A program made the position numbers and the translations under genes. Of a stretch of 58,368 bases of DNA, positions 1,368-58,368 are shown one piece after another (position 1 is the stretch's first letter; each line of letters opens with the position of its first letter). Under the pieces are notes generated by a model. It worked only from the letters and a program-made list of their open reading frames with translations, ran no database searches and was not told the origin of the DNA. Source of the DNA: a virus (lineage: Duplodnaviria > Caudoviricetes); the IMG/VR virus record IMGVR_UViG_3300030108_004301, positions 1 to 58,368 of that record; one strand, written 5' to 3'.

Positions 1368-1694
1368 ATGGGTTATACTAATTTTTGGCAACAACAAACA
1401 GACTTTACTCCTAGTGAGTGGTCTCAAGTTGTGACAGAAGCCGAGTACATAAAAGACTGGGCTCTTAACAATTCATTAAATGCTATAGCAAGTGTAGTTA
1501 TAGAAAAAGATCATATAATAATTGATGGTGTTCACCCTAATGTGTGTGAGAACTTTGTCCTTTACCGTAAACCACCAAATAGGGACAGACCTCAATTTTG
1601 CAAAACACAACTGCGTTTGTATGATCTAGCAGTACGGCATTTATTGAGTGTCTGTAGTGCAGTAAAAGCAGACTTTTCTCACCACGCTAATTAA
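1368..1694 (+). CDS. phage hypothetical protein (MGYTNFW...FCKT..YD.AV type)
   Basis: TATAAT-like element and GGAG upstream. N-terminal MGYT.(F/Y)W and FCKT motifs recalled from uncharacterised phage proteins. Confidence 0.75.
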   Translation: MGYTNFWQQQTDFTPSEWSQVVTEAEYIKDWALNNSLNAIASVVIEKDHIIIDGVHPNVCENFVLYRKPPNRDRPQFCKTQLRLYDLAVRHLLSVCSAVKADFSHHAN

Positions 1695-1698
1695 CAAA

Positions 1699-1806
1699 GA
1701 TCCTCGGTTCTCAGGTTCCGAGGTTCTCGGTTCTTGACTGGGGGATCATAATAGATCTTTGATGTTCTGGTTCTCATAAGAGATCTTTATTGATCGGTGC
1801 CGATCG
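1699..1806. repeat. GATC/GGTTC-dense motif cluster II, ending in 17-bp repeat copy 2 (1790-1806)
   Basis: 6 GATC (1699, 1744, 1754, 1782, 1792, 1802) and 6 GTTC (1707, 1715, 1723, 1730, 1764, 1770). Also a CCTCGG...CCGAGG inverted repeat at 1702-1723. Confidence 0.9.
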
Positions 1807-2056
1807 CAGTCGGTAAAAACGGAATAAAAAATTATGGTCATAACAAATTATTACTTTAATATTTTTAATATGTTTATGTTTATTTTAATTTACTGTATTT
1901 GCCTTTATATACTGTATAAACTGTATAACTAATTTTTAGGCTTGTAAGTAATTGTTTTTATTGTGTTTTTTACAAAACCGTACCATTTACAAAAAACACC
2001 ACCAAAAAACCAAAAAATAATTTCTAGCTAAACCATTGGTTTTATTGCCTTTTTAC

Positions 2057-2123
2057 ATTGTTATAAAAATACTGCTTATTGTTATAAAAATAAATGGTAT
2101 AATTAATTATGCCAATAGGCATA
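2057..2123 (+). promoter_or_regulatory. extended -10 promoter (TGgTATAAT 2095-2103) with upstream 15-bp direct repeat and downstream palindrome
   Basis: ATTGTTATAAAAATA at 2057 and 2078 (21-bp period). TATGCC-AATA-GGCATA at 2108-2123. Confidence 0.65.
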
Positions 2124-2153
2124 TTAATATTAACAAAAATAAGGTAAAAACAA

Positions 2154-2639
2154 ATGTTAAAAACTTTACAAAAAAATAAGGCAGTAAGTTTTAAACAAGT
2201 TATTTTAGTTAGCAACCATATAGGCAAAACAACTGCTTATAAACCTTTTACAACTGCAAGCGTAAAACAGTTTGTAAACGCAAATGGTGGCGGTAGTTAT
2301 AATAATATTACTGTTACGCCTTGCAATAATGTAAACCTAAAAAATACACCACCAATTAGTTTTGGTTATAATGGTGGTAAAGGCACTAAGCATAAAAACT
2401 TTGGTGGCACTAGGGCTTTAATACTAAATAGCTTTTTATTTGGTGTTACTGCAAACCATGCACCCGCTTTAAATGGTAATGGCAACTATAATTTAGGTGC
2501 AATACTTAACGCATTAAAGGTGCATAAAGTTAGCCCTACTTTGTGGGGTTGTGTGTTTTTGCTAAATGGTGGCACTAGCCCTAGCAATAACGCTTATGGC
2601 ACTAGCTTTATTAAGTTAGTAGCTAACCAAACTAAATAA
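2154..2639 (+). CDS. Asp/Glu-free basic hypothetical protein, paralogue of 56419..56850
   Basis: 161-aa ORF with its own promoter, AAGGT RBS and terminator. Aligns by eye with the 56419 protein (QFV...GG, P..NV.L.N..P..FGY.G, G.RA.I.N..L.G, GG.SPS....T..IKLV). Confidence 0.85.
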   Translation: MLKTLQKNKAVSFKQVILVSNHIGKTTAYKPFTTASVKQFVNANGGGSYNNITVTPCNNVNLKNTPPISFGYNGGKGTKHKNFGGTRALILNSFLFGVTANHAPALNGNGNYNLGAILNALKVHKVSPTLWGCVFLLNGGTSPSNNAYGTSFIKLVANQTK

Positions 2640-2658
2640 CTTTTTACTTACTGCCTAT

Positions 2659-2698
2659 AGCCCTAAGTACTTTTAAAAAGGTACTTAGGGCTTTTTTA
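2659..2698 (+). terminator. intrinsic terminator
   Basis: AGCCCTAAGTAC / GTACTTAGGGCT 12-bp stem followed by a T-run. Confidence 0.85.
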
Positions 2699-3006
2699 TT
2701 GGGCTTGTTTTATTTTGCTTTTTTGCACCCCCCTAGAGAGCTTTGCATTACACAAGGCGTCAGCGTAATGCAAGTTTTGGACGATTCTTTGGATATGAAA
2801 AAAATATCATAGACCGTACCCCCTTTACTGTTTGTTTTGATAATAGGTTCATTGCCCTTGAAAAATTTTCGATATATAAATAAAGTATGAATGAAACCCA
2901 ACAACAGCTGATTTTTATTTTAATTGTTTTTGAAATATGTTTACATTTGGCAGAAATATGGTTTGATTTTATGCAGCACATTCATTTTTACGGATTTGAG
3001 TGGTAA

Positions 3007-4494
3007 ATGACTCATTTAAAAATGAACAATAATTTAGATTTTATACCTGAAGAAAAATTAAAGAACTATGCTAATTTGATTAGTAAGGCAAAGGAGCTGA
3101 CTGATGCAGAAAAGGCTCGTTTGGATTTTATGCAGTTTACAAAAATGGTTTGGCCAGAGTTTATAGAAGGTAGCCACCATAAGATAATGGCGAAAAAATT
3201 TAATTTACTGGCAGAGGGTAAGTTAAAACGATTGATAGTGAATATGCCACCACGACACACGAAATCTGAATTTTCAAGTTTTTTACTTCCAGCGTGGCTG
3301 ATAGGTAAAAAGCCGAATTTAAAAATTATGCAGACTACACACACAGCTGAGTTAGCCTTTAGGTTTGGTAGAAAAACAAGAAACTTGATGAACTCACAGG
3401 AATACAAAAAAGTATTTAACAAAGTAAATTTGAGAGTGGACAGCCAAGCGGCAGGACGATGGGAAACAGAAAACGGTGGAGAGTATTTTGCGGCAGGAGT
3501 AGGAGGAGCGGTGACTGGTCGAGGTGCGGATTTATTAATAGTGGATGACCCTCATAGTGAGCAAGATGCACTGAGCCCAACTGCTTTAGAAAATGCTTAT
3601 GAATGGTATACATCGGGACCCCGACAGCGTTTGCAACCTGGAGGCAGCATAGTAATAGTAATGACACGCTGGGCAGAAAACGATTTAACAGGGAAGTTGA
3701 TACGCCAACAAGCTAGAGATATATTAGCCGATAAGTGGGAAGTAATAGAATTCCCCGCTTTGATGCCCGAAAGTGATGAGCCGATGTGGCCTGAGTTTTG
3801 GAATAAGAAAGATTTATTAAATGTAAAAGGAAGTTTATCAGTAGCCAAGTGGGAAGCCCAATGGCAACAAAACCCGACAAGTGAAGCGTCGGCACTTTTA
3901 AAAAGAGATTGGTGGAAGCGGTGGAAGAAAAAAGAAATGCCACCTTTGGAATATATAATGCAAAGTTATGATACAGCGTTTAATAAAAACAATAATGCTG
4001 ACTATAGTGCGATTACAACTTGGGGAGTATTTTACCCAGAAGAAACAGGAACACCGAATATAATTTTATGTGATGCCCGAAAAGATCGATGGGAGTTTCC
4101 TGAATTACGACGAGTAGCGTTAGAAGAATATAAGTATTGGGATCCTGAATGCGTATTAATTGAAGCAAAAGCGAGTGGTATGCCATTGACCCAAGAACTA
4201 CGGAATATGGGAATCCCAGTCATGAACTACAGCCCAAGTAGAGGGAATGATAAATTTGCTCGTGTAAATTCAGTTGCACCAATAGTCGAAAGTGGGTTAG
4301 TATGGGTTCCAGATACTCGTTGGGGTGAAGAAGTAATAGAAGAGTGTGCTGCTTTCCCTGCTGGAGAACACGATGATTATGTTGATACAGTTACACAGGC
4401 GTTACGAAGATTTAGAGAAGGCGGCTTTATATCTCACCCTGATGATTACGAAGAAGATCGTATTGGTATCAACAGAGAAAGGATTTATTACTGA
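3007..4494 (+). CDS. terL: terminase large subunit
   Basis: Walker A-like MPPRHTKS, Walker B LLIVDDP, VMTRW motif, and C-terminal RNase H-like nuclease (SYDTA, HDDYVD). Confidence 0.96.
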   Translation: MTHLKMNNNLDFIPEEKLKNYANLISKAKELTDAEKARLDFMQFTKMVWPEFIEGSHHKIMAKKFNLLAEGKLKRLIVNMPPRHTKSEFSSFLLPAWLIGKKPNLKIMQTTHTAELAFRFGRKTRNLMNSQEYKKVFNKVNLRVDSQAAGRWETENGGEYFAAGVGGAVTGRGADLLIVDDPHSEQDALSPTALENAYEWYTSGPRQRLQPGGSIVIVMTRWAENDLTGKLIRQQARDILADKWEVIEFPALMPESDEPMWPEFWNKKDLLNVKGSLSVAKWEAQWQQNPTSEASALLKRDWWKRWKKKEMPPLEYIMQSYDTAFNKNNNADYSAITTWGVFYPEETGTPNIILCDARKDRWEFPELRRVALEEYKYWDPECVLIEAKASGMPLTQELRNMGIPVMNYSPSRGNDKFARVNSVAPIVESGLVWVPDTRWGEEVIEECAAFPAGEHDDYVDTVTQALRRFREGGFISHPDDYEEDRIGINRERIYY

Positions 4495-6878
4495 TGGCTG
4501 AAGAAATAGAACAAATTAAAAAACCATCAAATGTAGAAAAGAGTTTAATTTCTAATGATGTGTTGAGTGAATTTTCTGTTGAGGAAGAAAACCTTCAAGG
4601 ACAGGAAGATGATTTTTTAAATATGGATGTTGAAGTTGAAACAGATGATGAAGGTGGAGCAGAAGTTACTTTTGGTGAACAAGAAGAAGAGACAGGTGTA
4701 GAACCTGATGATTTTTTTGGGAACTTGGTCGATGGACTTTCTGAATCAACTTTATCAGAAATATCCCGTTATGTTATGACTTCTGTTGAAGAAGATAAAA
4801 ACAGTCGTAAGGATTGGGAAGACAGTTACACAAATGGATTAGATTTATTAGGGCTGCGTTATGAAAACAGAACAGAACCTTTTGATGGTGCTACTGGTGT
4901 AGTGCATCCAATATTAAATGAGGCAGTTACACAGTTTCAGGCAGGAGCGTATAAAGAAATGTTACCTTCATCGGGACCTGTTCGTGCTCAAATTGTAGGT
5001 GAACCTACTGCGGAAATAGAAAAACAGGCACAGCGAGTAGAAGATTACATGAATTATCAAATTATGTATGAAATGGAAGAGTACGAACCAGAGTTTGACC
5101 AGATGTTATTTTTCTTAGGGTTGGCTGGAAGTGCATTTAAAAAAGTTTATTTTGATGATTTACTCAAAAGACCAGTAAGTAAGTTCATACCAGCAGAAGA
5201 TGTGGTCGTACCGTATACTGCTTCTGACTTACGATCGGCTGAGCGTGTTTCTCATGTCATAAAAATGAATGAAAATGAACTGCGTAAGTTACAAGTGAGT
5301 GGTTTTTACAAAGATATGGAACTAAAAGGCGGTTTAACAGAGGATTCTTCGCCCATTGATGAAAAATATGATGAGATTGAAGGTAAATCAACAAACTCTT
5401 ACGAGGAAGAATACACTTTATATGAGTGTCATTGCTATTTTGACCTTGAAGAGTACCCTGACAGGAAGGTTGATGGCGAAAATTCAGGCATAAAACTACC
5501 TTATATCGTTACAGTTTGTTCAGACACGCAAGATGTACTGAGTGTAAGAAGAAATTTTTTGCCTGATGACGCAAAAAAAGACAAAATACCACATTTTGTG
5601 CAATATAAGTTCACTCCTGGACTAGGTTTTTATGGTTTTGGACTAATTCACTTGCTTGGTAACCTTTCTAGAACTGCAACTGCTAATTTAAGACAATTAA
5701 TTGATGCAGGAACGCTATCAAATATGCCAGCAGGATTTAAAGCGAGGGGTTTACGCATAGCTGATGACTCAGAACCTTTACAACCTGGAGAATTTAGAGA
5801 TGTTGATGTTCCAGGAGGTGATTTACGCACAAGTTTGATGGCTTTACCTTACAAAGAACCTTCAGGAACGCTGTTTCAGCTGATGGGTTTTGTTGTACAG
5901 TCAGCTCAACGGTTTATTGGAACAACTGATATTGGTGTAGGTGACGGAAACCAAGAAACACCAGTCGGTACAACTATTGCGTTGTTAGAAAGGGGAGCTA
6001 GAATAATTTCTGCTGTCCATAAACGATTACACGCTAGTTTAAAAAATGAATTGAAGTTATTAGCACGATTATTTGGACAAGATCCAAACCCTTACCCTTA
6101 CCCTGTTGGTGTTGATGCACAAGTAAAGACTACAGATTTTGATGCTCGTATCGATATTATACCCGTTAGTGACCCTAATATTTTTAGTATGTCGCAAAGA
6201 GTAGTTTTAGCACAAGAACAATTAAAACTTGCGAGTGCTGCACCAGATTTGCACAACCTTTATGAATCATACCGTCGTGTGTATGAGGCGTTAGGTGTAA
6301 AGAATGTAGATCAGATATTAAAACCTCGCATGGTTCCTATGCCTAGAGACCCAGCCCAAGAAAACCAAGATGCCTCAGTTGCTGCGGCTGGTCAAACTAA
6401 ATTACAGGCATACCCTACGCAAAATCACGATGCTCATATCGCTGTTCATTTGGCGTATATGCAATCAAAAGTTGCTAAGATGCAACCAGCAGTTTTACTT
6501 ACTTTAGAAAAACATATTTTTGAACATATCGGTTTGAAAGCTCAAGTATTGGCTGCTCAACAACTACAACCACAGGAACAACAAAACCCAGATCTTGTTG
6601 CTTCTAAGGTAGCAGAAATACAATCACAGTTAATGCTTGATTATTTACAAAAGAATCCTCCGCAACCAGACCAAGAACCATTGGTGGCGTTAAAACAACA
6701 AGAACTTGCTCTTCGTGCTCAAGAACAACAAACAGATGCGTTCAACGAGCAACAAAAATTAAAACAAGAGCAAATGAAAACACAACAACAAGGTTCTATT
6801 GCTAGGGAACGCATACAATCTACTGAGGATATAGCCAATATGCGAGCTCAAATAGCTTTAGAAAGAACACGAAAATAA
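4494..6878 (+). CDS. portal protein
   Basis: 794 aa directly after terL. Motifs GSAFKKVY, GFYGFGLIH, LRQLIDAG and PVGTT.AL of P22-like portals, with a coiled-coil C-terminus. Confidence 0.9.
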   Translation: MAEEIEQIKKPSNVEKSLISNDVLSEFSVEEENLQGQEDDFLNMDVEVETDDEGGAEVTFGEQEEETGVEPDDFFGNLVDGLSESTLSEISRYVMTSVEEDKNSRKDWEDSYTNGLDLLGLRYENRTEPFDGATGVVHPILNEAVTQFQAGAYKEMLPSSGPVRAQIVGEPTAEIEKQAQRVEDYMNYQIMYEMEEYEPEFDQMLFFLGLAGSAFKKVYFDDLLKRPVSKFIPAEDVVVPYTASDLRSAERVSHVIKMNENELRKLQVSGFYKDMELKGGLTEDSSPIDEKYDEIEGKSTNSYEEEYTLYECHCYFDLEEYPDRKVDGENSGIKLPYIVTVCSDTQDVLSVRRNFLPDDAKKDKIPHFVQYKFTPGLGFYGFGLIHLLGNLSRTATANLRQLIDAGTLSNMPAGFKARGLRIADDSEPLQPGEFRDVDVPGGDLRTSLMALPYKEPSGTLFQLMGFVVQSAQRFIGTTDIGVGDGNQETPVGTTIALLERGARIISAVHKRLHASLKNELKLLARLFGQDPNPYPYPVGVDAQVKTTDFDARIDIIPVSDPNIFSMSQRVVLAQEQLKLASAAPDLHNLYESYRRVYEALGVKNVDQILKPRMVPMPRDPAQENQDASVAAAGQTKLQAYPTQNHDAHIAVHLAYMQSKVAKMQPAVLLTLEKHIFEHIGLKAQVLAAQQLQPQEQQNPDLVASKVAEIQSQLMLDYLQKNPPQPDQEPLVALKQQELALRAQEQQTDAFNEQQKLKQEQMKTQQQGSIARERIQSTEDIANMRAQIALERTRK

Positions 6879-39837: not shown

Positions 39838-41379
39838 ATGAACTCTAATAATTTAACAAAAACAATTGCAGAAAACTTGTTTTCAATTTTTCAGGGAAGT
39901 GATATTGCTCATGGAACATTTGTCACTAAAGGAACCTCCATAAATGGAAAAAAACAAGGTGTAGCTAAAGTTATTAGAGAACCAACAACCGTTGAGATGT
40001 GGGAAAAGCATCTCAATGGTGAGGTTGGTATAGGTATTATACCCATAAAAAGCGATAATAATTGTTTTTGGGGTGCAATAGATATTGATGAATATGATAT
40101 AAAACACAAAAAACTGTGTGAAAACCTTTTGAAAAATAAAATTCCTGCAGTAGTGGGAAGAACAAAAAGTGGTGGAGCTCACATATGGGTGTTTGTTTCT
40201 ACCGCAATCCCAGCAGAAGATATGCAAAGAAAAATGACAGAACTATCTGCTGCTCTTGGTTTTTCTGGTAGTGAAATATTTCCTAAACAAACAACTATAT
40301 TGTTAGAAAGAGGGGATACAGGAAACTTTTTAAATATGCCATACTTTTCTGGTTCTAAAAGCACACGATATGCTTTTGATGATAATGGCAACGCTGTTTC
40401 TGTAGAAGAATTTATAAAACTAGCCAAACAAAAAACGATAACACCTAACAAGTTTTTTAGTTTAGATTTTAGTTTTGGTGTTCCCAAAGAAGTTTTAAAA
40501 GATGGACCTCCGTGTTTACAGCATCTTTGTAAACAGGGTTTTGCTGAGGGATCACGAAACAATGCTCTTTTTAATTTAGGTGTTTATGCAAGATTACTAG
40601 ACCCAGATAATTGGGAAAACTTAATACAAAGATACAATATGGATTACTTAGATCCTCCTCTAAGCCACAGTGAGGTAGGAGCAGTAATAAGACAGTTAAA
40701 GAAAAAAGATTATTTTTACAAATGTGACGATCAACCGATAAAACCTTTTTGTGATAAAGAAGTATGTAAGACTAGAAAATATGGTGTAGGACCAAATGGT
40801 ATAGGTAATGATTTAAGTTCTCTAACTAAAATAGATGGTGACCCACCCATATGGATTTTAAATGTAGATGGGTTGAGAGTTGAGCTTTCTACTAATGGTT
40901 TAACTTCTCAAACACAGTTTCAAAAAGAGTGTGTTTCACAAATAAATAAATACCCACAAAGCGTCAACCAAAGGGCTTGGCAAGTAAGAATACAAACACT
41001 ATTAGATAATCTGACGATAGTCGAGGTTCCGCCTGATGCTACTATAAAAGGTGAGTTTGAAGATTTACTTCATGCGTTTGCCTGTGAGCGAGCAAAAGGA
41101 GAAGAAAAAGAAGATATTTTACAGGGAGTGGCAGTCTGGTATAATGATAAAGTATTTTTCCTAGTAAAAGATTTAAAAAAGCATTTGACCGTGAACGATT
41201 TTAACCATTACACTTCCAACAAAATAACACTAAGATTACAAGATTTAAAATCAGAAAAAACATTTTGGAGGGTAAGAGGTAAAGGTGTTCATGTTTGGTC
41301 ACTTCCTCAGAAATATTTTAAACCACAAGAAGAGAACATACCATTACCTGATCTTCCTCAACCGAAAGATGTCATATGA
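39838..41379 (+). CDS. AEP-superfamily primase with PriCT-like domain
   Basis: IDID, TKSGGAH, GN..NMPY, PPCL and GSRNNALF motifs. Confidence 0.8.
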   Translation: MNSNNLTKTIAENLFSIFQGSDIAHGTFVTKGTSINGKKQGVAKVIREPTTVEMWEKHLNGEVGIGIIPIKSDNNCFWGAIDIDEYDIKHKKLCENLLKNKIPAVVGRTKSGGAHIWVFVSTAIPAEDMQRKMTELSAALGFSGSEIFPKQTTILLERGDTGNFLNMPYFSGSKSTRYAFDDNGNAVSVEEFIKLAKQKTITPNKFFSLDFSFGVPKEVLKDGPPCLQHLCKQGFAEGSRNNALFNLGVYARLLDPDNWENLIQRYNMDYLDPPLSHSEVGAVIRQLKKKDYFYKCDDQPIKPFCDKEVCKTRKYGVGPNGIGNDLSSLTKIDGDPPIWILNVDGLRVELSTNGLTSQTQFQKECVSQINKYPQSVNQRAWQVRIQTLLDNLTIVEVPPDATIKGEFEDLLHAFACERAKGEEKEDILQGVAVWYNDKVFFLVKDLKKHLTVNDFNHYTSNKITLRLQDLKSEKTFWRVRGKGVHVWSLPQKYFKPQEENIPLPDLPQPKDVI

Positions 41380-42017
41380 ATAATGTTTTTTTCTCTAAAA
41401 AATACCAAGCGTATGTAAGGGAAAACACTTTGGATGAGTATATTTTTGGAGAAATATCATCTGCCTATAAAGACCTTGAAATAAAAAAAGGTGATGTAGT
41501 TTTAGATTTAGGAGCAAACATAGGTGCTTTCGCAAAACAAGCAGCAGAAAAGGACGCAATCGTACATTGTTACGAGCCTGAACCTAGTAACTTTACTCTT
41601 TTACAGTTAAACAGCCCGAACACTTATAATCATAAGAAGGCGGTTGTAGGTAAACAAAATGGAAAGATAAAACTATTTATAAATTCTAAAAGAAACAAGG
41701 GTATCCATATGATAAGGCCAGTGAATGGAAGAGAAAGCATAGAAGTAGAAACTGTTTCTTTTGGTGACCTTATAAATGAAATAAAACCAAACAAAATAAA
41801 AATAGATGTAGAGGGAGCAGAGTATGATTTTTTACCTTATGAGTTTCCCAGTTTTGTAGAAAGACTTGTTATGGAAATACATTTTCAGTACGACCCTTCT
41901 TGGAGAAAACTAGGTAGGGAAGTTCATGAAAATATGATCAAGCAAGGTTTTTCTTCTTTAAAAGAATTTAAAGACACAGGGAAAAACTGGCATATTATAG
42001 GAGCGTATGTAAGATAA
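41376..42017 (+). CDS. FkbM-family SAM-dependent methyltransferase
   Basis: VLDLGANIG.F, YEP.P.N, KIDVEGAEY and MEIH motifs. Confidence 0.88.
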   Translation: MNNVFFSKKYQAYVRENTLDEYIFGEISSAYKDLEIKKGDVVLDLGANIGAFAKQAAEKDAIVHCYEPEPSNFTLLQLNSPNTYNHKKAVVGKQNGKIKLFINSKRNKGIHMIRPVNGRESIEVETVSFGDLINEIKPNKIKIDVEGAEYDFLPYEFPSFVERLVMEIHFQYDPSWRKLGREVHENMIKQGFSSLKEFKDTGKNWHIIGAYVR

Positions 42018-43537: not shown

Positions 43538-43627
43538 CAAAAGAAATAAAAAAAGTTATCAGTAGCAATAATTTATATACAATTAATAATGTATTAAATG
43601 TTAATAATTTTTAAAGAAAGGAAATTT

Positions 43628-44653
43628 ATGTCGCATTTAGTAGAAACAATGGCTTATGCTGGAGAAGTTCCTTGGCATGGTCTAGGCAAACAAGTATCTG
43701 ACAATATGTCACCAAGTGATATGTTAAAAGCTGCTGAACTTGACTGGACAGTTACCAAGAGACCAGCATATACAATAGACAAGCCAGATTGTTGGAACAT
43801 AGTTGACCCAACTGGGGAAGCTAACTTTCTTCGTTGTGAAGATAATTACTTCCTAGTTCGTGATAGTGATAATAAAATACTATCACCTTGTGGGGAAAAC
43901 TATGTACCTTTTCAAAACGCAGAAGTGATGAGCTTTTTTAAGAAGTTTACACAAGCTGGACAAATGAAAATGGATACAGCAGGAAGCTTGAAACATGGTA
44001 AAGATATTTGGGGTTTAGCCAAACTCAGCGATAACTTTACACTTCCAGGAGATGACCGTATGGAGGGTTATCTTCTTTTAAATAATAGTCATCAGGTTGG
44101 TAAAGCTATGACTATTATGTTCACGCCTGTCAGGGTTGTGTGTAATAACACTCTTACTATGGCACTTGATTCAGGAGCAGAACGCTTCAGAGTTTTACAT
44201 TTACAAATGTTTGACGAAGAGGTAAAAAAAGCTGCTGAGGAAGCACTTGGTTTGAGTAACGCCTTATCCAAAACATTTAGTGAACAAGCTAATTTTTTAA
44301 GTTCCAAGAGGGCAAGAAGCCCAGAACTTGAAAAGTTTATAGCTGAACTTTTTCAACCCAATCTTTTGATTGAACGAGGTAAGGTCTCTGACCATTCCAA
44401 ACTTCCGCCAATACAAGATGAGTTTAAAAGGAACGCTGAACTTGTTTATGACGCAGTTGAGACTTCTCCTGGAGCAAGTCTTAAATCTGCAAAGGGTACT
44501 TGGTGGGGTGCTTTGAACGCTGTGACTTATGTTGTAGACCACAAGAAAAAATCACAAGAAAAGGGTAATTCTCTTCATTCTGCGTGGTTTGGTTCTGGAG
44601 CACAAGTAAAACGCAAGGCACTTAAGAAAGCACTTGAGTACGCAGAGGCGTAG
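43628..44653 (+). CDS. DUF932-family protein
   Basis: PWHGLG, TAGSL..G, TPVRVVCNNTL and GTWWGALNAVT motifs. ATG 43628 follows GAAAGGA. Confidence 0.85.
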   Translation: MSHLVETMAYAGEVPWHGLGKQVSDNMSPSDMLKAAELDWTVTKRPAYTIDKPDCWNIVDPTGEANFLRCEDNYFLVRDSDNKILSPCGENYVPFQNAEVMSFFKKFTQAGQMKMDTAGSLKHGKDIWGLAKLSDNFTLPGDDRMEGYLLLNNSHQVGKAMTIMFTPVRVVCNNTLTMALDSGAERFRVLHLQMFDEEVKKAAEEALGLSNALSKTFSEQANFLSSKRARSPELEKFIAELFQPNLLIERGKVSDHSKLPPIQDEFKRNAELVYDAVETSPGASLKSAKGTWWGALNAVTYVVDHKKKSQEKGNSLHSAWFGSGAQVKRKALKKALEYAEA

Positions 44654-44687
44654 GGGGATAAATTAAAGTTTGTCCTTGATTTTATTA

Positions 44688-44696
44688 TGGTATAAT
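44688..44696 (+). promoter_or_regulatory. extended -10 promoter for the modification operon
   Basis: TGgTATAAT. Confidence 0.55.
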
Positions 44697-44721
44697 ATTA
44701 TATTGTTTTTGTTAATATATA

Positions 44722-44780
44722 AGCCCAGTGATGTGTTGAGTCCTTTCGTACAGCATATCGCTGGGTTACCATAGAAAGGG
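44722..44780 (+). ncRNA. candidate cis-regulatory hairpin/pseudoknot with anti-SD loop
   Basis: 17-bp stem 44722-38/44751-67 with 4 G-U pairs. Loop UCCUUUC is complementary to the SD GAAAGGG at 44774-80. Confidence 0.55.
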
Positions 44781-44785
44781 TTAAA

Positions 44786-45709
44786 TTGAACACAACTCCC
44801 CAAACATTATTTCAACAAGATAAAGTAGAAAGTTTTTATAATTGGATTAATGAACGCCACAAAATATATCAAAAAAGATTACAAGGTTATCCTCCTCCGT
44901 GGACTGATGACCCAATACTACAGAAATATAAATTCACAAACCCATTCAGAGAAAACGATCGTGTTACTGTATGGATGAGAAACAACTGGACAACACCAAA
45001 CGACAACAAAAAGAATGCTGCTGAAATTATATTTAATTGCTGTTTGTTTAGAATGATAGGCACTATAGAATTTGCTGAAGATCACGGTTGGGTAAAAAAT
45101 AATTGGAATCCAGAAAAAACTAAAAAAATAATAGAAGATAGGTTAAGTAAAAAACAAAGAACATTTACTGGAGCATATATAATTACGAATCAGGGTATTT
45201 CTGCACCTAAAAAAGATGTAGTTGTAGATGAGTTCCTTGTACCGATTTGGAAAAACAAAAATGCAATTGCTGAAAATGCAGCTCATTATCAAACATTACA
45301 AAAAACCCACGAAAAATTAGGTGAATACAAAGGGTGGGGAGGCGGTGGTTTTATGGCTTATGAAGTTGTTTCTGACCTTAATTATACCTCTGTTCTAAAC
45401 AAAGCAGCGGATCGTTACACTTGGGCAAATGCAGGACCAGGAGCAATACGAGGAATAAATAGAATAGAAGGTGCTAACTTAAAACGATCTATGAAACCAG
45501 AAATATCTAATCAAAAAATGCAAAAAATTTTAGATTTAAAGTATGTTTATACTGCCGAACACATTGATGTTGCTTCTGTCGATATGAGAACAATAGAACA
45601 CAGTTTGTGTGAGTGGGATAAATATGAGAGAGTAAGACTCAATCAAGGCAGACCAAGAAGTAAGTTTTCTTGGAGCCATAACAAAATAGATAGTGGAGGA
45701 GTAAGATGA
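44786..45709 (+). CDS. aGPT-Pplase1 / 5-hmdU DNA kinase helical-domain-like DNA base-modification protein
   Basis: ERH.IY..R..G...PWT.DPIL..YKFTN.FRE.DR, F.AYEV..DL, GPGA.RG and IEH.LCE.DKY motifs; TTG start. Confidence 0.82.
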   Translation: MNTTPQTLFQQDKVESFYNWINERHKIYQKRLQGYPPPWTDDPILQKYKFTNPFRENDRVTVWMRNNWTTPNDNKKNAAEIIFNCCLFRMIGTIEFAEDHGWVKNNWNPEKTKKIIEDRLSKKQRTFTGAYIITNQGISAPKKDVVVDEFLVPIWKNKNAIAENAAHYQTLQKTHEKLGEYKGWGGGGFMAYEVVSDLNYTSVLNKAADRYTWANAGPGAIRGINRIEGANLKRSMKPEISNQKMQKILDLKYVYTAEHIDVASVDMRTIEHSLCEWDKYERVRLNQGRPRSKFSWSHNKIDSGGVR

Positions 45710-47010
45710 AATTTCTAATTACTTTTTTTCAGATACAAGATTATGGTGGAATAATAAACCATACCGAATATTTAACAGCAGGACTTAAGGAACTAGGACA
45801 TACTGTTGATATAGCTATGCTTGTTCCAAAGCACGGAGTTGTAAGAACAAGTTTACCAAAAGATATAGAAGATAAAACTAAGTATTCAATAAACCCAAAA
45901 GGAACTAACCTTTATCACAATCAAGCTAGAGGTTGGTATGGTATGACCAAAATACCTTATTTAAATGAGTACAGAAAAAATAAGTTTAAGGAAGATTGTT
46001 CTAATTATGACGCAGTCATTTGGCAAATTCCTGTTCCTACACTCAGTAAAGAAAACAAAGGTGTAAAAGATTGGTATGACTTATATAGCACAGGAACTAA
46101 AAACATAGCTGTCATACACGATGGTAACCTACCAAACTTATATCCTCATTTAGCGAGTGTTCAAAATAAGTTTTATTCTATGATTTGTGTTCATGAATCA
46201 GCATTTGAATCTGCTGAAAACATACAAATACCTAGAATGTTAGTTGTAAACCCTCATGACATACAAAAACAAGGACAGTATGGACAAAAGAAGTTTGAAG
46301 AAAAAGATGGTTTAGTTGCCATACAAATATTCAAAGGGTGGAAAAGAGTAGACTCTTTAGTACGAGCTATACCTTTTATGAACAATAAAGAACAAAAAAT
46401 TGTTGGAGGAGCAGGAATAGAATATAGATATATGACTAGCAAAGAAAAGTGCAAACCAAAATACTTTGAATCAAATGGTTCCAGAATATGGGATAATGCC
46501 TTAGCAAGTGGAATGGAATATGTTGGTGTTGTTGATAATGAAAAAGTATTTAATTATCTAAACAATGCAAAAGTACACATAGACCCAAGTTGGTCAAAAA
46601 AATATCACGCCTTTGGTTCTCATTTTAATAGAACAACAATTGAAGCTATGATATCAGGTTGCTTACCTATCGCTACAGATTTAGGTATGGGTAATTCTGA
46701 TATATTTAAAAAGAATAAAAACTATGTAGAAATATCACACGAAGCTACACCAAAACAATTTGCAGAAATTGTTGACGATTGTTTACAAAATAAAAGTAAG
46801 TGGCAAACGATTACAGATAATAATTGTGAAAAGCTACAAGAGTTCGACATGAAAAAAGTAGCAGATGAATATGTTGAAATTATTAAAGGCGGCTATGATA
46901 CGAAAAAAATAAAGAATGGACTAAACAACAATGAAATTATTACAAAATGCAACGATAATTTAGAATTTTTTAATTTTGGATTCCGTATGGAGCTCCCTCG
47001 ATCTGATTGA
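45706..47010 (+). CDS. GT-B (GT4-like) glycosyltransferase
   Basis: N-terminal GG...H...L..GL...GH.V, K..KRVD.LVRA and C-terminal DPS....EAM..G..PIA motifs. Confidence 0.82.
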   Translation: MKFLITFFQIQDYGGIINHTEYLTAGLKELGHTVDIAMLVPKHGVVRTSLPKDIEDKTKYSINPKGTNLYHNQARGWYGMTKIPYLNEYRKNKFKEDCSNYDAVIWQIPVPTLSKENKGVKDWYDLYSTGTKNIAVIHDGNLPNLYPHLASVQNKFYSMICVHESAFESAENIQIPRMLVVNPHDIQKQGQYGQKKFEEKDGLVAIQIFKGWKRVDSLVRAIPFMNNKEQKIVGGAGIEYRYMTSKEKCKPKYFESNGSRIWDNALASGMEYVGVVDNEKVFNYLNNAKVHIDPSWSKKYHAFGSHFNRTTIEAMISGCLPIATDLGMGNSDIFKKNKNYVEISHEATPKQFAEIVDDCLQNKSKWQTITDNNCEKLQEFDMKKVADEYVEIIKGGYDTKKIKNGLNNNEIITKCNDNLEFFNFGFRMELPRSD

Positions 47011-47066
47011 GGGTGTTCCGCATACAAAACTACCTTGCTAATAATAATGAAAACACAGGAGGAAAT

Positions 47067-48062
47067 ATGGAACATATAGCGGCTAGGAATGTAAGTGACG
47101 GCCTTTACCTTACAAAATTAAGTCTTTTAGAAGTAGGGAAGAAAGAAAACACGAGAAACGGTTGGGTTTTAGAATTTCCCACTCCTTTTTGCGTGACATA
47201 TACTCATCCAACAGAAAGAGTTTTATTTTATCCAGAAAGAGATGCTAACCCTTTTTTTCATTTGATGGAATCTTTGTGGATGTTGGCAGGAAGAAATGAT
47301 GTTGAGTGGATTTCTAAGTATAATAAAAGGATTTCTGATTACAGTGATAATGGAAGAACATTTCATGGAGCATATGGACATCGGTGGCGTAATCATTTTA
47401 GGGGAGGACCAAAAGAGTTTAAAGATCAGTTAGACCAAGTTATGATTAGATTACATAAATTTCCAAATGATCGTAGGGCTGTTGTTTCTATGTGGGATCC
47501 TAATGTTGATTTAGTAATGCACAATGATGGAAAGGATTATCCTTGTAACACTCAAATATTTTTTTCTAAAAGAGGGAAAGTTTTAAATATGACAGTGATA
47601 AATAGAAGTAATGATATTGTGTGGGGATTATTTGGTGCTAATGCAGTTCATATGTCTATGTTACAAGAATATATGGCAGCTAGAACAGAAAGCGAAGTTG
47701 GAACATATATTCACTTTAGTAACAATGCTCACGCTTACTTGGATACATTAGAAAAAATAAAAGATATGCAACCAGATTATGAATCTTATTTAATTATTGG
47801 GGACGATGCTTCACAATACCACTCACAACCGTTAGTAGATAACTGGTTAACTTTTGATGAAGAGTTAGCATTATGGTTTAGGAATGAGGAGGTAAATGTC
47901 TTTGAAAATAAATTTCTTTCTCTTACAGCTTTTAGAGTAAGGGAGGGTTGGCACTTTTGGAAACAAAAGAATATAAACAAAGCTATCGAAATATGTAAAA
48001 CGATAGAAGATCGTGCTTGGCGTAAAGCGTGTGTGGAGTGGCTTGAAAGGAGGAACAAATGA
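47067..48062 (+). CDS. thymidylate-synthase-superfamily enzyme, probable dUMP hydroxymethylase
   Basis: RDANPFF, GAYG.RWR, DRRAV..MWD, catalytic YPCN, RSND..WG..GAN (Asn indicates dUMP specificity) and NNAHAY. AGGAGG precedes ATG 47067. Confidence 0.85.
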   Translation: MEHIAARNVSDGLYLTKLSLLEVGKKENTRNGWVLEFPTPFCVTYTHPTERVLFYPERDANPFFHLMESLWMLAGRNDVEWISKYNKRISDYSDNGRTFHGAYGHRWRNHFRGGPKEFKDQLDQVMIRLHKFPNDRRAVVSMWDPNVDLVMHNDGKDYPCNTQIFFSKRGKVLNMTVINRSNDIVWGLFGANAVHMSMLQEYMAARTESEVGTYIHFSNNAHAYLDTLEKIKDMQPDYESYLIIGDDASQYHSQPLVDNWLTFDEELALWFRNEEVNVFENKFLSLTAFRVREGWHFWKQKNINKAIEICKTIEDRAWRKACVEWLERRNK

Positions 48063-48460
48063 AAAGCAGAATACTTCAGGAAGTTGAAAAACTAGCACAA
48101 GAAGATGCCTTTAAGTTAGAAGAGGCTGAAAAATCTTATGGTGATAGTTGGAAAAAAAGGGGAGGCGTTGGTGCATTCATGATGTTAGCTAGAAAATGGG
48201 ATAGAATAGCTCAGCAAAACAGCATGAAAAACACAGGATACGATATATTTAAGGCAATAAAGCAAGACGGTTATTCTGAAACAGGATTGTTAGATGATAT
48301 CCGTGACTTAAGAAGGTATTTACTTTTAGTAGAGGCTGAAATGTTTTTAAGAAGAGAGGGTGATCATCCTGTTAAAAGACATTTAAACACACAGTTCAGT
48401 CCTTATGAAAATGAAGAGGGTATGATTAGTGATAGTTGTGAGTGGAGAACAGATGAATGA
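48059..48460 (+). CDS. nucleotide-modification-associated (Nmad/MazG-like all-helical) protein
   Basis: SYG.SWKKRGG.GAFMMLARKWDR...D.I.DLRRYLLLVE motif, directly after the TS homologue. Confidence 0.65.
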   Translation: MKSRILQEVEKLAQEDAFKLEEAEKSYGDSWKKRGGVGAFMMLARKWDRIAQQNSMKNTGYDIFKAIKQDGYSETGLLDDIRDLRRYLLLVEAEMFLRREGDHPVKRHLNTQFSPYENEEGMISDSCEWRTDE

Positions 48461-48617: not shown

Positions 48618-50454
48618 ATACGAATGGGTAATGCCAGATGAGTTTCCTGACTTATCAGGTTTTAAAGAAATTTCTATAGACTTAGAAACTTGTGATAAGA
48701 ATCTACTTACCAATGGTTCTGGGTGGGCTAGAAAAGACGGCTATGTTATAGGTATCGCTGTTGCTACAGAAGGCTTCTGTAAATATTTTCCTATACAACA
48801 TGAGATAGGACCTAACCTTGACAAAAATGTCACTCTTAACTGGTTACGAGAAGTTGTTTCCTTTCCTGATAAAAAGTATATTTTCCACAATGCTCCGTAT
48901 GATGTAGGGTGGTTGATCGCAGAGGGAGTGTTCGTAAAGGGAGAAATAATAGATACTATGGTTGTTGCTCCTTTGCTTGATGAAAATAGGTTCAGTTATT
49001 CTTTAAACGCTTTAGCCAGAGATTATCTACAAGATAGAAAATCAGAAGTTGGTTTAAGAGAGGCAGCTGATGCTTTTGGAGTAAATGCAAAAAGTGAAAT
49101 GTATAAACTTCCCGCTCACTATGTCGGTGAGTATGCAGAACACGATGCTAGTCTCACACTTAAACTTTGGAATCATTTTAAAACACTAATTATAAAAGAA
49201 GATATAAAAGAAATATTTGAACTAGAAACTAAAGTTTTAAAAACTATAATTCCTATGAGAAAACAAGGTGTTCGGGTTGATTTAGAAAAAGCAGAAAAAA
49301 TTAAAAAACTTTTTGAAGAAAAAGAAAATACTTTACTTACAGAGATTAAAAATGAATCTGGTGTTTTAGTAGAAATATGGGCGGCAGATAGTGTTGCAAA
49401 AGTTTTTGATTCTTTAAAACTTTCCTACGGAAGAACAGAAAAGACACAAGCACCGTCGTTCACAAAAGGTTTCTTAGCAAACCACAAACACCCGATTGCT
49501 AGAAAAATAGTACAAGCTAGAGAATATAATAAGGCAAGAACTACTTTTATCGACACAATACTAAAACATCAAACAAAGGGTAGAATACACGCTGAGTTAC
49601 ACCCTCTTAGAAGTGATCAAGGTGGAACAGTCACTGGAAGGTTTAGTTACAGTAATCCTAACTTACAGCAAGTGCCTATAAGGAATAATGAACTAGGACC
49701 AATGATAAGAAGTTTATTTCTGCCTGAAGAAAAATGTAGTTGGGGTATCTTTGATTATTCTAGCCAAGAGCCTAGGATTGTTGTTCATTACGCAAAACTT
49801 ATGAAGTTCCAAAAAGCAGAAGAATTTGCTGAACAATACCAAAAAGATTCAAGAACTGACTTCCATCAAATGGCGGCAGATATTGTAGGTGTGCCAAGAA
49901 AACAAGCTAAAAACATTAATTTGGGGTTGTTCTATGGCATGGGAACTAAGAAACTAGCAAACCAGTTGGACTTACCATACGAAGATGCCAAAGAACTTTT
50001 TGCTGAGTATCACACTAAACTACCTTTTGTAAAAGAACTTGCAGAATATTCTAGTAATAGGGCTTCTCATAAAGGTTTAATAAGAACTCTGTTAGGGAGA
50101 AAGTGTAGGTTCGATAAGTGGGAACCTAATAAGTACGGTATATCAAAACCTTTGAATTACCAAGAAGCGTTCGCTGAACATGGACCTTCTATTCGCAGAG
50201 CCTTTACATATAAGGCTCTAAATAAATTAATTCAGGGAAGTGCAGCTGATCAAACAAAAGCAGCGATGGTCGCACTTTATGAAGAAGGTATTTTACCAAT
50301 GATACAAGTACACGATGAACTAGACATAAGCATAGAAGATGAGAGCCAAATGAAAAAGGTAATAAGTATTATGGAAGAATGTGTTGATTTAGAGGTTCCT
50401 AGCGTTGTTGACACTGAACTAGGACCAAATTGGGGTGAGTGCGTTGAAAAATAA
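48589..50454 (+). CDS. polA: family A DNA polymerase with 3'-5' exonuclease
   Basis: DLET, HNA.YD, TGRFS...PNLQQ, motif A DYSSQEPR, motif B KNINLGLFYG and motif C VHDE. Confidence 0.95.
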   Translation: MGQIPLLQPEYEWVMPDEFPDLSGFKEISIDLETCDKNLLTNGSGWARKDGYVIGIAVATEGFCKYFPIQHEIGPNLDKNVTLNWLREVVSFPDKKYIFHNAPYDVGWLIAEGVFVKGEIIDTMVVAPLLDENRFSYSLNALARDYLQDRKSEVGLREAADAFGVNAKSEMYKLPAHYVGEYAEHDASLTLKLWNHFKTLIIKEDIKEIFELETKVLKTIIPMRKQGVRVDLEKAEKIKKLFEEKENTLLTEIKNESGVLVEIWAADSVAKVFDSLKLSYGRTEKTQAPSFTKGFLANHKHPIARKIVQAREYNKARTTFIDTILKHQTKGRIHAELHPLRSDQGGTVTGRFSYSNPNLQQVPIRNNELGPMIRSLFLPEEKCSWGIFDYSSQEPRIVVHYAKLMKFQKAEEFAEQYQKDSRTDFHQMAADIVGVPRKQAKNINLGLFYGMGTKKLANQLDLPYEDAKELFAEYHTKLPFVKELAEYSSNRASHKGLIRTLLGRKCRFDKWEPNKYGISKPLNYQEAFAEHGPSIRRAFTYKALNKLIQGSAADQTKAAMVALYEEGILPMIQVHDELDISIEDESQMKKVISIMEECVDLEVPSVVDTELGPNWGECVEK

Positions 50455-50971
50455 ACTTGAGTTTTATGAACTGATACAAAAAAGATTAAAAGGTGGTGAT
50501 GTTTTAAGGTATCATACTAGACCTGAAGTTGCTGATAAACAAGATGTTGCTGCTCACAGTTGGCGTTCTTTGGTTCTGCTTACCACACTCTGGCCAGACG
50601 CAAGTAAAAACAGTATCTTATTTGTTCTTTATCATGATGTAGCTGAGCTAGAAATAGGAGATGTTCCCGCCACGACAAAATGGAAATACAAAGATTTAGC
50701 AAAAACCTTAACGGTAATAGAAAACGACTATGAGGATTTGTTGTGCCTTCCAGTGAAATATGTTGATCTTTCAGAAGAGGAACAACAAAGAGTAAAGATA
50801 GTAGATATCCTTGAATTAGTTTTTCATTGTCATAAACAAATGCAAAAAGGTAATTCTCTTGCGAGCGATATATTTTACAGAGGCATTGATTTTTTGTATT
50901 CAAACTTTAAATACAGTAAGGATTATGTTTTGATAGAAACTGTATTAGAAAAAATGAAAGGAGAGCCATGA
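50435..50971 (+). CDS. HD-domain 5'-deoxynucleotidase (YfbR-like)
   Basis: RYH, V..HS, YHDVAE...GD.P...K and K.VD.LE motifs. Confidence 0.82.
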   Translation: MSALKNKLEFYELIQKRLKGGDVLRYHTRPEVADKQDVAAHSWRSLVLLTTLWPDASKNSILFVLYHDVAELEIGDVPATTKWKYKDLAKTLTVIENDYEDLLCLPVKYVDLSEEEQQRVKIVDILELVFHCHKQMQKGNSLASDIFYRGIDFLYSNFKYSKDYVLIETVLEKMKGEP

Positions 50972-56368: not shown

Positions 56369-56394
56369 TATACTGATATCATGCCATTTGGCAT
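56369..56394 (+). promoter_or_regulatory. -10 element (TATACT) plus ATGCCA-TT-TGGCAT palindrome
   Basis: Same palindrome type and spacing as upstream of the paralogue at 2109-2122. Confidence 0.6.
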
Positions 56395-56418: not shown

Positions 56419-56850
56419 ATGGTAAACATGAGTAAAATAGCTCAACTATCGCCTACTCAGGCAAAACCAACTGTAAAAGTTGCTGAACTTATAGTAAAAG
56501 AGGATGAACTCTCTTACGAGCAAATTTTTCAGTTTGTCAAACAACACGCTGGAGGTAACGAGGGCAATGTAAACATTGTTCCTCTTCCAAATGTTGATCT
56601 TGATAATAAAAAACCTGTCCCCTTTGGATATGGCGGCAAAAAAGACGGTGTGAGAGCCAAAATTCAAAACATGATACTTAAGGGTATTAAAGGTGACCAC
56701 ACTCTTAAAACTATGCTTGATGTGACCTGCAAAATGTTTGGTCACTCCAAGAAAAAACCTTGCGTCCTACACGCACTAATGCACGGAGGCTACAGTCCTT
56801 CTAGCAAATTTTGGCTTACTCCTTACATCAAATTAGTTGTAAAGTCATAA
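56419..56850 (+). CDS. hypothetical protein, paralogue of 2154..2639 (true start may be 56428)
   Basis: GAAAGGA RBS, motifs shared with the 2154 protein, followed by a UUCG hairpin. Confidence 0.85.
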   Translation: MVNMSKIAQLSPTQAKPTVKVAELIVKEDELSYEQIFQFVKQHAGGNEGNVNIVPLPNVDLDNKKPVPFGYGGKKDGVRAKIQNMILKGIKGDHTLKTMLDVTCKMFGHSKKKPCVLHALMHGGYSPSSKFWLTPYIKLVVKS

Positions 56851-56886: not shown

Positions 56887-57067
56887 AAGTTTCAAGTTTG
56901 CTATATAGTAGTAAAATGAAATAAGTGTAAAATCAAATTTTAACTTTCTCCAATATACAATATATAGCTATATCCGATATATTTTGAAAACTATTTCAGC
57001 CACGCGAAAACAATCGACTTTGAATTTAAATTTGCATCTTTTCAAAAACTCTACTATTATACAAAGT

Positions 57068-57616
57068 ATGGCGATCGCTAAACAAACACATAAGAATAAA
57101 CTTGAGGTAGTAGCTAATCCCCGCAGGGAAAAACAAATTACTCCCAAACAAGAAGAGTTCGCAAGATTGTATGTCTGCGAGGACATTACACAAACTGAAG
57201 CAGCGATAAAAGCTGGATACTCTAAAAATTCAGCTCATGTGATTGCTTCGCAACTTCTCGATGGGCGATCGTTTCCTCATGTAATCAACCGAATACGAGA
57301 ACTGAAAATAGAATTATCTCGTAAATATGAAGTTTCCTTTGAAGGTCATGTAAAAAAGTTGGCTGAGATTAGGGATTCTGCGATCGGTTCTGGTAATTTC
57401 GCAGCGGCTGTCGCTGCTGAAAAATCTCGTGGTCAGGCGGCAGGATTGTACATCGATCGTAAAGAAATACTACACGGAAAAATTGACCAGATGAGTAGAG
57501 AAGAAGTTATGAAGGAAATACAAAGATTACAACAAGAATATCCTGCTTTGGCAACCTTTAGTGCCGACAATGTTGTAATAGAAGGTGATTCTAAAGAGTT
57601 GAAAACAAAGGACTAA
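57068..57616 (+). CDS. terS: terminase small subunit
   Basis: ITPKQEEFARLYV...TQTEAAIKAGYS...A...AS.LL HTH signature. ATG 57068 is in frame with track ORF 56984. Confidence 0.85.
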   Translation: MAIAKQTHKNKLEVVANPRREKQITPKQEEFARLYVCEDITQTEAAIKAGYSKNSAHVIASQLLDGRSFPHVINRIRELKIELSRKYEVSFEGHVKKLAEIRDSAIGSGNFAAAVAAEKSRGQAAGLYIDRKEILHGKIDQMSREEVMKEIQRLQQEYPALATFSADNVVIEGDSKELKTKD

Positions 57617-58015: not shown

Positions 58016-58368
58016 ATGACTTATAATTACGATTTTTTTAAGTTTAAAGAGATCCACTTACAAACACATAAAGATCAAGCCATTGGTTGTATAAACGAGT
58101 GGTTTTTTGGGTGTGACAAACCAACTATCACTGATTTTAAACAACAATGGGATTCTTTTACAGTTTGCCATTATATTATTGAGCTTATAAAAACTAAATC
58201 CAAAAGTTGTACTCGTGTTTTTATCGGGGATAACCATCACGGTTTACGCGAAGGTAAAAAAATAAAACTTTTCTTTGGTGAGTCTTTATTCAAACAAACA
58301 AATTGTGATTTTCCTCATTATGAAATTTTTCACAATGGTAAATATTATTTTGAAGTGCTAACTGATTC
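58016..58368 (+). CDS. hypothetical protein, 3'-truncated by window edge (MTYNYDFFKFKEIH...)
   Basis: AAGGAG RBS; frame open to the last base. Confidence 0.65.
   Translation, partial: MTYNYDFFKFKEIHLQTHKDQAIGCINEWFFGCDKPTITDFKQQWDSFTVCHYIIELIKTKSKSCTRVFIGDNHHGLREGKKIKLFFGESLFKQTNCDFPHYEIFHNGKYYFEVLTD

Follow-up and report, generated by a model that had tools for sequence, protein, structure and literature searches.

The window analyzed here is the whole of IMG/VR virus record IMGVR_UViG_3300030108_004301, a stretch of 58,368 bases estimated to be 99% complete, and our subject is a pair of paralogous genes within it, copy 1 and copy 2, the second of which encodes a protein without acidic residues and lies in a zone of about 0.9 kb from which the dinucleotide GA and its complement TC have been purged. 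The window is a complete marine podovirus-type phage genome, kin to the HTVC023P-type pelagiphages, and nearly all of its genes lie on the + strand. The pair and the zone occupy the following positions:

1839..2736, no strand assigned: GA/TC-free zone of 898 bp, with a single TC at 2023
2154..2639, + strand: copy 2, the acid-free paralogue of 161 amino acids (aa), with no Asp or Glu; 23 Asn and 15 Lys in near-identical relatives
56419..56850, + strand: copy 1, the 'normal' paralogue of 143 aa, with 6 Asp and 5 Glu; 42 GA/TC steps

A preliminary description of this DNA had proposed, from alignment by eye, that the proteins starting at 2154 and 56419 are paralogues. BLASTP bears this out (59.3 bits, E 1e-16, 42 of 128 positions identical (33%), 31 gap positions), and the four stretches that had been quoted as similar all fall inside the alignment. 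A search of the window's own record for the family returned exactly two places, namely copy 1 and copy 2. The start of copy 1 is probably the ATG at 56428, which gives a protein of 140 aa, since its relatives start there (as in the 140-aa P0001).

The contrast in composition that had been drawn between the two proteins was also correct, with 0 acidic residues in the 161 of copy 2 and 11 in the 143 of copy 1, counted on the translation. Asn or Lys had been said to stand at the matching positions, and at the 11 alignment columns that are mostly Asp or Glu in copy 1, Asn is indeed the commonest residue (64 of 209 cells) in 19 acid-free rows, followed by Ala, Thr, Ser, Gly and Lys. At three columns where copy 1 always or almost always has Asp, these rows mostly have Asn (10/19, 19/19 and 16/19). 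The fate of the purged copy has been the loss of Asp and Glu, with conserved Asp sites mostly becoming Asn.

The zone extends from 316 bases 5' of the copy-2 start codon to 97 bases past its stop codon. GA/TC occurs 6041 times in the 58368 bases of the window (10.35%), and the zone is made up of GA/TC-free gaps of 185 and 713 bases, the next longest in the window being 69. Simple arithmetic from the window frequency puts the chance of a 713-base gap anywhere in the window at about 1e-29, and none of the nine other strand-symmetric dinucleotide classes has a comparable gap.

It had been suggested that copy 2 was recoded to fit the zone, and the gaps together with codon shuffling confirm a purge at the level of DNA. 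The codon junctions of copy 2 contain 0 GA/TC, as compared with 12.3 +/- 2.3 in 5000 synonymous-codon shuffles, in which 0 was never reached, and the codons used are restricted to AGY for Ser, ATT and ATA for Ile, TTT for Phe, GGY for Gly and TAA for the stop. The non-coding DNA of the zone is similarly purged, both upstream (1839-2153; 1 GA/TC observed, 25.8 expected) and downstream, where the terminator is included (2640-2735; 0 observed, 11.7 expected). Given that upstream DNA, codon junctions and terminator are all purged, the purge acts on DNA, and the loss of Asp and Glu is a by-product. The zone takes in upstream DNA, a leader hairpin, the open reading frame (ORF) and the terminator, and ends about 40 bases past the last of these. 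Within the window the purge is unique to this cassette, and promoters at large show no such purge: the other intergenic DNA has 250 GA/TC as against 300 AG/CT, coding DNA has 5749 as against 6791, the same ratio, and every gene of the window outside copy 2 has at least 5.8 GA/TC per 100 bases.

The pair is not confined to this genome. A relative is encoded by 104 stretches of IMG/VR, of which the best 80, together with further loci, gave a set of 83 loci (L003-L085), many of which are near-duplicates. Both copies lie on one strand, 368 bases to 3 kb apart, in 69 of the 83, in agreement with the earlier claim that the family is kept twice; the loci with a single copy are mostly cut by a contig end. 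At one locus (L078) the second copy is a more distant acid-free ORF of 197 aa, situated in an 852-base GA/TC-free zone directly before TerL, the gene for the large terminase subunit. Copy 1 has 34-70 GA/TC steps in every one of the 69 loci; copy 2 has none in 11, no more than 9 in 40, 14-26 in 8 and at least 28 in 21. With flanks of 60 bases, copy 2 carries 0.00-0.77 of the expected GA/TC in all 21 sources compared (20 loci and the window), as against 0.93-1.29 for copy 1 in the same sources, and the weakly purged lineages show depletion of no other dinucleotide. Genome-wide, the ratio of observed to expected GA/TC is 0.79-0.93 in the group and 0.98 in HTVC027P, a difference too small to use.

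Searches at the protein level gave a similar picture. A word-index search, with matches from many marine sources, yielded 80 protein clusters resembling copy 1 and 22 resembling copy 2. Among the 15 full-length clusters closest to copy 2 (74-96% identical), 14 lack Asp and Glu and one has a single Asp; P0076, a cluster nearer to copy 1, is also acid-free. A profile search of 1.84 billion representatives yielded 101 clusters, 83 of them with representatives of at least 100 residues, and 18 of these 83 are acid-free while 25 more contain less than 3% Asp and Glu. The order of genes in seven whole genomes is TerS (the small terminase subunit), a conserved gene of 135 aa, copy 1, copy 2, a conserved non-coding element, TerL and portal; the window's own lineage deviates from this, with copy 1 upstream of TerS.

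We built a maximum-likelihood tree from 96 distinct rows, rooted only at its midpoint. Copy 1 forms one clade of 43 rows with 100/100 support and all copy-2 rows fall outside it, as expected for one old duplication. The homologues do therefore split by genomic position, as had been proposed for checking, into a 'normal' copy-1 clade and a GA/TC-poor copy 2 that is always beside TerL. The distinct copy-2 proteins in the tree comprise 29 rows with fewer than 2 GA/TC per 100 bases, 5 with 2-6 and 17 with at least 6. Strongly purged rows are scattered over the tree, those with a weak purge, at 7-10 per 100 bases, sit in several nested groups, and in one series successive branches have 0, 2, 4 and 8 per 100 bases. 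Placing the purge labels on the tree needs 5 changes, 3 of which are forced by well-supported branches. Judged from this tree, the purge has been relaxed, or gained, several times, in a direction that the midpoint root does not fix.

Purifying selection on the ORF at 2154 was likewise found, the ratio of nonsynonymous to synonymous substitution rates (dN/dS) being 0.14-0.25 among its orthologues; at dS values of 0.32-0.73, GA/TC has arisen in none of these orthologues. The weakly purged copy-2 proteins keep Asp or Glu at some of the acidic positions of copy 1, and the acid-free state therefore looks like a tolerated compromise and not a new function.

The following elements lie around the two cassettes:

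1695..1838, no strand assigned: GA/TC-rich non-coding segment directly 5' of the zone, with six GATC sites and repeated GGTTC words
2057..2092, + strand: two exact 15-nucleotide direct repeats, ATTGTTATAAAAATA, 21 bases apart, just 5' of the -10-like box
2093..2101, + strand: extended -10-like box, TGGTATAAT, a candidate copy-2 promoter found by eye
2108..2123, + strand: copy-2 leader hairpin, TATGCCAATAGGCATA, 3' of the promoter-like box and 5' of the ribosome site
2659..2700, + strand: intrinsic-terminator-like hairpin of 15 pairs with a T-run, inside the zone
2728..2885, + strand: conserved non-coding element between copy 2 and TerL, unique in the window
56381..56394, + strand: copy-1 leader hairpin, ATGCCATTTGGCAT, found by eye

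Each copy had been credited with its own promoter and 3' hairpin. For copy 2 the strong terminator-like hairpin, at 2659-2692, stands, but a consensus promoter scan does not list the promoter, giving no + strand site between 1626 and 2837; the scan requires at least 4 of 6 matches to the -35 hexamer, of which the consensus, TTGACA, itself contains GA. Copy 1 has by eye both a leader hairpin that matches that of copy 2 and a 3' hairpin. Relatives have hairpins with differing stems at the copy-2 leader position (in L009, L016, L022, L037, L042, L046, L048, L051, L058 and L071), and in L016, L022, L042, L046 and L058 the loop reads CAATAAC on stems that differ. The leader hairpin may be an operator or an element that stabilizes the mRNA.

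The GA/TC-rich segment that borders the zone has a counterpart in relatives, where the 150 bases after copy 1 contain 25-31 GA/TC steps; it was seen between the copies in L022, L046, L048, L016, L071, L058 and L013, and also in L012, L075 and L077. In many lineages it takes the form of a long inverted repeat in which an AT palindrome separates a GA-rich arm from a TC-rich one; clusters of GATC are found in this segment in the AT-rich lineages, the window among them.

On the other side of the zone, the conserved element contains a C-run (2728-2733), a hairpin (2745-2771), AAGTTTTGGAC at 2772-2782 and AGGTTCATTG...TTTTCGATATAT at 2845-2877. It is kept at the nucleotide level in 16 lineages of 35-56% G+C (the window, L012, L016, L022, L037, L048, L051, L053, L058, L060, L071, L075, L083, L026, L042 and L013), with AGGTTCATTG and TTTTCGAT invariant. 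Single-sequence folds give its hairpin 8-11 pairs with a stem sequence that differs in 16 of 16 lineages, and one or more C-runs are present. RNAalifold returned no consensus structure from an alignment that is out of register at the hairpin, and Rfam gave no family at gathering score, with three chance-level matches in 1600-3100. The element may be a packaging site, a genome end, or a late promoter or leader of the structural operon.

AlphaFold2 models built with family alignments scored well for both copies, with a predicted local distance difference test score (pLDDT) of 85.8 and a predicted template modelling score (pTM) of 0.78 for copy 1, and 88.6 and 0.84 for copy 2, and the predicted fold is the same in each: a disordered basic N-terminus, then helix, strand, three helices and strand in the same order. 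The family had been called undescribed, and that description holds: Pfam, PHROGs and the ESM Atlas name nothing for either copy, Foldseek of the models found no fold relative (best E 1.2 in PDB and 1.5 in BFVD), the family profile reached at best E 0.47 against PDB sequences, and tblastn of both copies against 50,697 annotated phage records gave no match. A complex of copy 1 with copy 2 scored 0.00 in two runs made without controls, from which we draw no inference.

No acidic residue is conserved across the whole family, which argues against metal-dependent catalysis. The proteins are basic in net charge, and the relatives P0145, P0183 and P0130 have long tails rich in Ala, Lys and Pro. One of the 101 cluster representatives, P0173 (420 aa, a singleton from a Joint Genome Institute (JGI) metagenome), joins the domain (residues 65-192) to a C-terminal HNH_2 domain (PF13391, E 9e-11). 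No further fused form of near length was found, a metagenome scan giving only relatives of the HNH part, and the nearest of these HNH relatives carry different, unnamed N-terminal parts, as expected if that part picks the target. The charge, the tails and the fusion are hints, to be taken as leads only, which would point to nucleic-acid binding and not to any named role, such as that of the first-expressed host-takeover, anti-defence or modified-DNA transcription factor that had been suggested. As for expression, 20 sequencing runs of 10 studies contain part of the stretch, and the four examined consist of contigs only; the sole datum is a 163-nucleotide metatranscriptome contig identical to 2188-2350, which would agree with transcription but may be DNA carry-over.

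The genome also encodes predicted enzymes for making modified thymidine, identified by Pfam, whose family of central interest here is the 5-hydroxymethyldeoxyuridine (5-hmdU) DNA kinase:

43598..48460, + strand: thymidine-modification cluster, in the same order in six relatives' genomes, comprising the next five entries
43598-44653, + strand: DUF932
44786-45709, + strand: 5-hmdU DNA kinase helical domain (PF18723, E 7.3e-54, 274 of 281 profile positions)
45706-47010, + strand: GT1-like protein (E 4.6e-8)
47007-48062, + strand: thymidylate-synthase-like protein (PF00303, E 1.6e-24), a thymidylate synthase homologue and candidate deoxyuridine monophosphate (dUMP) hydroxymethylase, which may make 5-hmdUMP or dTMP
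48059-48460, + strand: 133-aa protein without an assigned family, followed by PolA
50435-50971: HD nucleotidase

Nine of 10 records from relatives contain PF18723, among them all 8 with a completeness of 90% or more; the exception is only 56% complete. In one record (G008, the source of L083) two unrelated genes, 364 and 246 aa long, take the place of the GT1-like gene, which suggests a different final modification in that lineage.

A report on the phages M6, ViI and phiW-14 infers from restriction mapping that their hypermodified thymines lie at TG/TC steps, and ascribes this to the kinase (PMC6449724), and a second report states that 5-hmdU conversion occurs 'in sequence-specific contexts' (PMC8989533). 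We favor, at a probability of roughly 0.5, the reading that copy 2 is a modification-free cassette for a small basic, probably DNA-binding protein. An old tandem duplication would have produced two cassettes, each with a leader hairpin, an ORF and a 3' hairpin, and the one beside TerL has lost every GA/TC step over about 0.9 kb. The phage's own modification would be set at thymines before C, a context presumably fixed by the 5-hmdU DNA kinase. If that context holds, a stretch with no TC on either strand contains no modifiable thymine, and would stay ordinary DNA in an otherwise decorated genome. The purged cassette would then be usable in a state of the DNA that bars copy 1, and this state is most plausibly that of the fully modified genome on its arrival in the cell; the product of the cassette would be a nucleic-acid-binding protein needed at genome entry. 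Given that the cassettes share a layout and encode seemingly equivalent proteins, the likeliest difference between them is in timing or in the DNA state that each copy can use. The paralogy, the purge of DNA and its conservation, the purifying selection, the common fold and the presence of modification genes are established, whereas we infer the TC context, from the purge, as well as the unmodified state, the timing and the protein function. An unmodifiable stretch is the simplest account of a complete, strand-symmetric, two-base purge, and we put it at about even odds.

Several observations weigh against a modification-free cassette. At least 3-5 copy-2 lineages show only a weak purge (7-10 GA/TC per 100 bases), and yet two complete genomes among them (G001 and G007) keep the whole kinase cluster; no gene family was exclusive to purged or unpurged genomes among 7 compared, and the kinase identities revealed no special variant in these lineages. 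The purge touches none of the window's other genes or intergenic regions, and modification is therefore not a general block to transcription. No recognizable amino-acid:DNA transferase was matched by Pfam in the cluster, which has in its place a GT1-like protein and the 133-aa protein, and a dinucleotide-free zone was found in 0 of 4 of the cultured phages with the nearest kinase homologues (PhiJL001, Lucjan, WP2 and CN2). TC/GA steps abound in the conserved element that adjoins the zone. Finally, a pile-up of contig ends after the cassette, together with its adjacency to TerL, fits a packaging or genome-end explanation equally well.

A bolder version, which we consider rather unlikely, would make copy 2 an 'ignition' cassette, placed at the first-entering end, undecorated, and coding for a DNA-binding protein, free of acidic residues, whose task is to read or unlock the decorated genome, with the normal twin in service once fresh DNA is made.

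It is also possible, in our judgment with a low probability, that the cassette lies at the first-entering genome end and was purged of a motif read by host defence, so that its product is made before the rest of the genome is exposed. The readers would be restriction enzymes whose sites contain GA/TC, a DNA modifier directed at thymine or TC, or a nuclease or glycosylase that depends on modification. In other phages the DNA packed last may enter the cell first, and if the conserved element marks a packaging site or an end, the cassette could be packed last and enter first. Consistent with such a position, the cassette directly adjoins the unique element and TerL in all genomes examined, and 13 of the 83 loci end within 150 bases 3' of the last family copy, as compared with 1 of 83 within 150 bases 5' of the first, a count that would fit packaging as well (over a wider span, 19 of 83 end within 300 bases downstream and 2 of 83 within 300 upstream). 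An uneven purge among lineages with the same modification genes would fit differences between hosts as well. However, no restriction enzyme is known to read a two-base word, and yet the purge is complete at the dinucleotide level, and if TC thymines are modified then the TC/GA sites elsewhere are already protected. Moreover, near-complete records end at differing places relative to the cassette, and the contig breaks may stem instead from hairpins, C-runs or strain variation.

A constraint from packaging, in which DNA by the packaging or cutting site must lack bulky thymine adducts so that terminase can bind, wrap or complete packaging, and the gene there is a bystander that had to be recoded, seems to us a poor prospect. 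The position of the cassette between the terminase genes is identical in all 7 genomes compared, and the unique conserved element follows it directly, both of which favor this explanation. On the other hand, the purge stops about 40 bases past the terminator, its upstream edge passes abruptly into the GA/TC-rich segment, and it does not decay with distance from the element, which is itself TC-rich; what GA/TC survives in partly purged lineages is not found at the far end but in the ribosome site and at acidic residues near the N-terminus.

A mutational footprint, left by a TC-specific DNA deaminase that turned TC into TT (AA on the other strand) locally and without selection, is disfavored and very improbable. 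Asp to Asn and Glu to Lys are the changes to be expected from it, acidic columns are most often replaced by Asn, and the cassette has a slight excess of AA/TT (1.19). However, the most enriched class is GC/GC and not AA/TT, the replacements include Ala, Thr, Ser, Gly, Pro and Tyr, which deamination cannot produce, the ORF is open and under purifying selection, the borders are sharp, both strands are equally affected, and we know of no reason why only this 0.9 kb should be hit in dozens of lineages. Selection on RNA or protein, whether because an mRNA without GA and UC escapes a ribonuclease or because the protein's function needs no acidic residues, agrees with an mRNA that lacks both steps and a protein that lacks Asp and Glu but can be all but set aside, given that some 250 bases upstream of the -10-like box are purged too, that codon junctions are purged (0 against 12.3 expected), for which selection on protein gives no account, and that less-purged copy-2 lineages carry Asp or Glu where copy 1 does.

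A whole transcription unit that has given up one dinucleotide, and with it two amino acids, is a very strong and easily scored footprint of a two-base reading of DNA, and in the acid-free protein and its normal twin nature has tried out how a fold fares when Asp and Glu are lost. If the phage's own thymine decoration is the cause, the context of hypermodification in uncultured viruses could be inferred from genomes alone, modification would have a cost that the phage evades for one gene, and this widespread marine family would be the product that requires undecorated DNA. If the 'ignition' version were true, the modification code (T before C) would be readable from sequence and the family would be a new class of modified-DNA reader.

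Pfam scans took in about 22 of the window's 82 ORFs, and besides the genes above matched a PolA polymerase, an AEP primase, UvrD-like and SNF2 helicases, and Pam3 gp32/33/34-like proteins, in addition to DUF932; no dioxygenase was among the matches from the ORFs so scanned. The terminase and portal genes are:

3007..4494, + strand: large terminase subunit (TerL), the first gene after the copy-2 cassette in every relative examined
3007-6878: TerL and a 794-aa ORF taken as portal, named from TerL comparison and position, not from Pfam
56984..57616, + strand: small terminase subunit (TerS; PF03592, E 1.5e-13)

An FkbM-type methyltransferase gene at 41376-42017, between primase and helicase, is present only in the window's genome among the 7 compared. 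ORFs at 1-270 and 58016-58368 run past the ends of the record, and in a relative's record (G006) about 1.5 kb that includes copy 2 is duplicated at both ends; given these cut ORFs and this terminal repeat, the records look like opened circles or permuted assemblies and not natural ends.

By TerL the nearest cultured phages are 023Pt_psg01 (63.5% identical), HTVC027P (61.3%), DSL-LC04 (59.5%) and HTVC023P (57.8%), while megablast of the first 25 kb of the window against annotated phages gave no match. The likeness to the HTVC023P-type phages lies in TerL (58-61% identical) and in a similar genome size and gene order. Their clades V, VIII and IX carry thymidylate synthase and 'aGPT-PPlase1', according to the accessible part of the paper that describes them, which mentions neither the gene pair nor the purge (PMC9599517). 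The window's kinase family is annotated as aGPT-Pplase1 in some phage records. In the 50 kb examined of the cultured HTVC027P we found no annotated kinase, no zone, no family member and no words of the conserved element.

M6, ViI and phiW-14 resemble the window in that it, too, has a thymidylate-synthase-like gene, a 5-hmdU DNA kinase (PF18723) and an HD nucleotidase near PolA. They differ in that the window purges TC/GA only, and not TG/CA, and has no recognizable transferase step, and in that the accessible part of their description mentions no modification-free island or acid-free gene. The phage thymine dioxygenase 5mYOX97, which prefers NTC, shows that a thymine-modifying enzyme of a phage can read exactly T-then-C (PMC13229309). 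As described there, however, its chemistry is a post-replicative oxidation of T, ParB-dependent in some members, whereas the window has the thymidylate-synthase-like route.

A search of the full text of papers found none in which a hypermodifying phage is described with either a dinucleotide-free cassette or an acid-free paralogue, and none on a modification-free region or an acid-free phage protein. DNA-mimic anti-restriction proteins of the Ocr/ArdA type have a strongly acidic surface that imitates DNA, and such a surface is absent here, copy 2 being acid-free and copy 1 net basic. Motif avoidance as such is a known kind of adaptation. The first-step-transfer region of T5 and gene 0.3 of T7 exhibit site avoidance in the first-entering phage DNA, and vertebrate viruses are depleted of the CpG dinucleotide; as would hold for the cassette of copy 2, a DNA word has been removed so that a system that reads sequence cannot act. 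What distinguishes the present case from these is that one small transcription unit has given up a two-base word altogether, and two amino acids along with it, and that the reader of the word is here probably the phage's own enzyme and not the host's.

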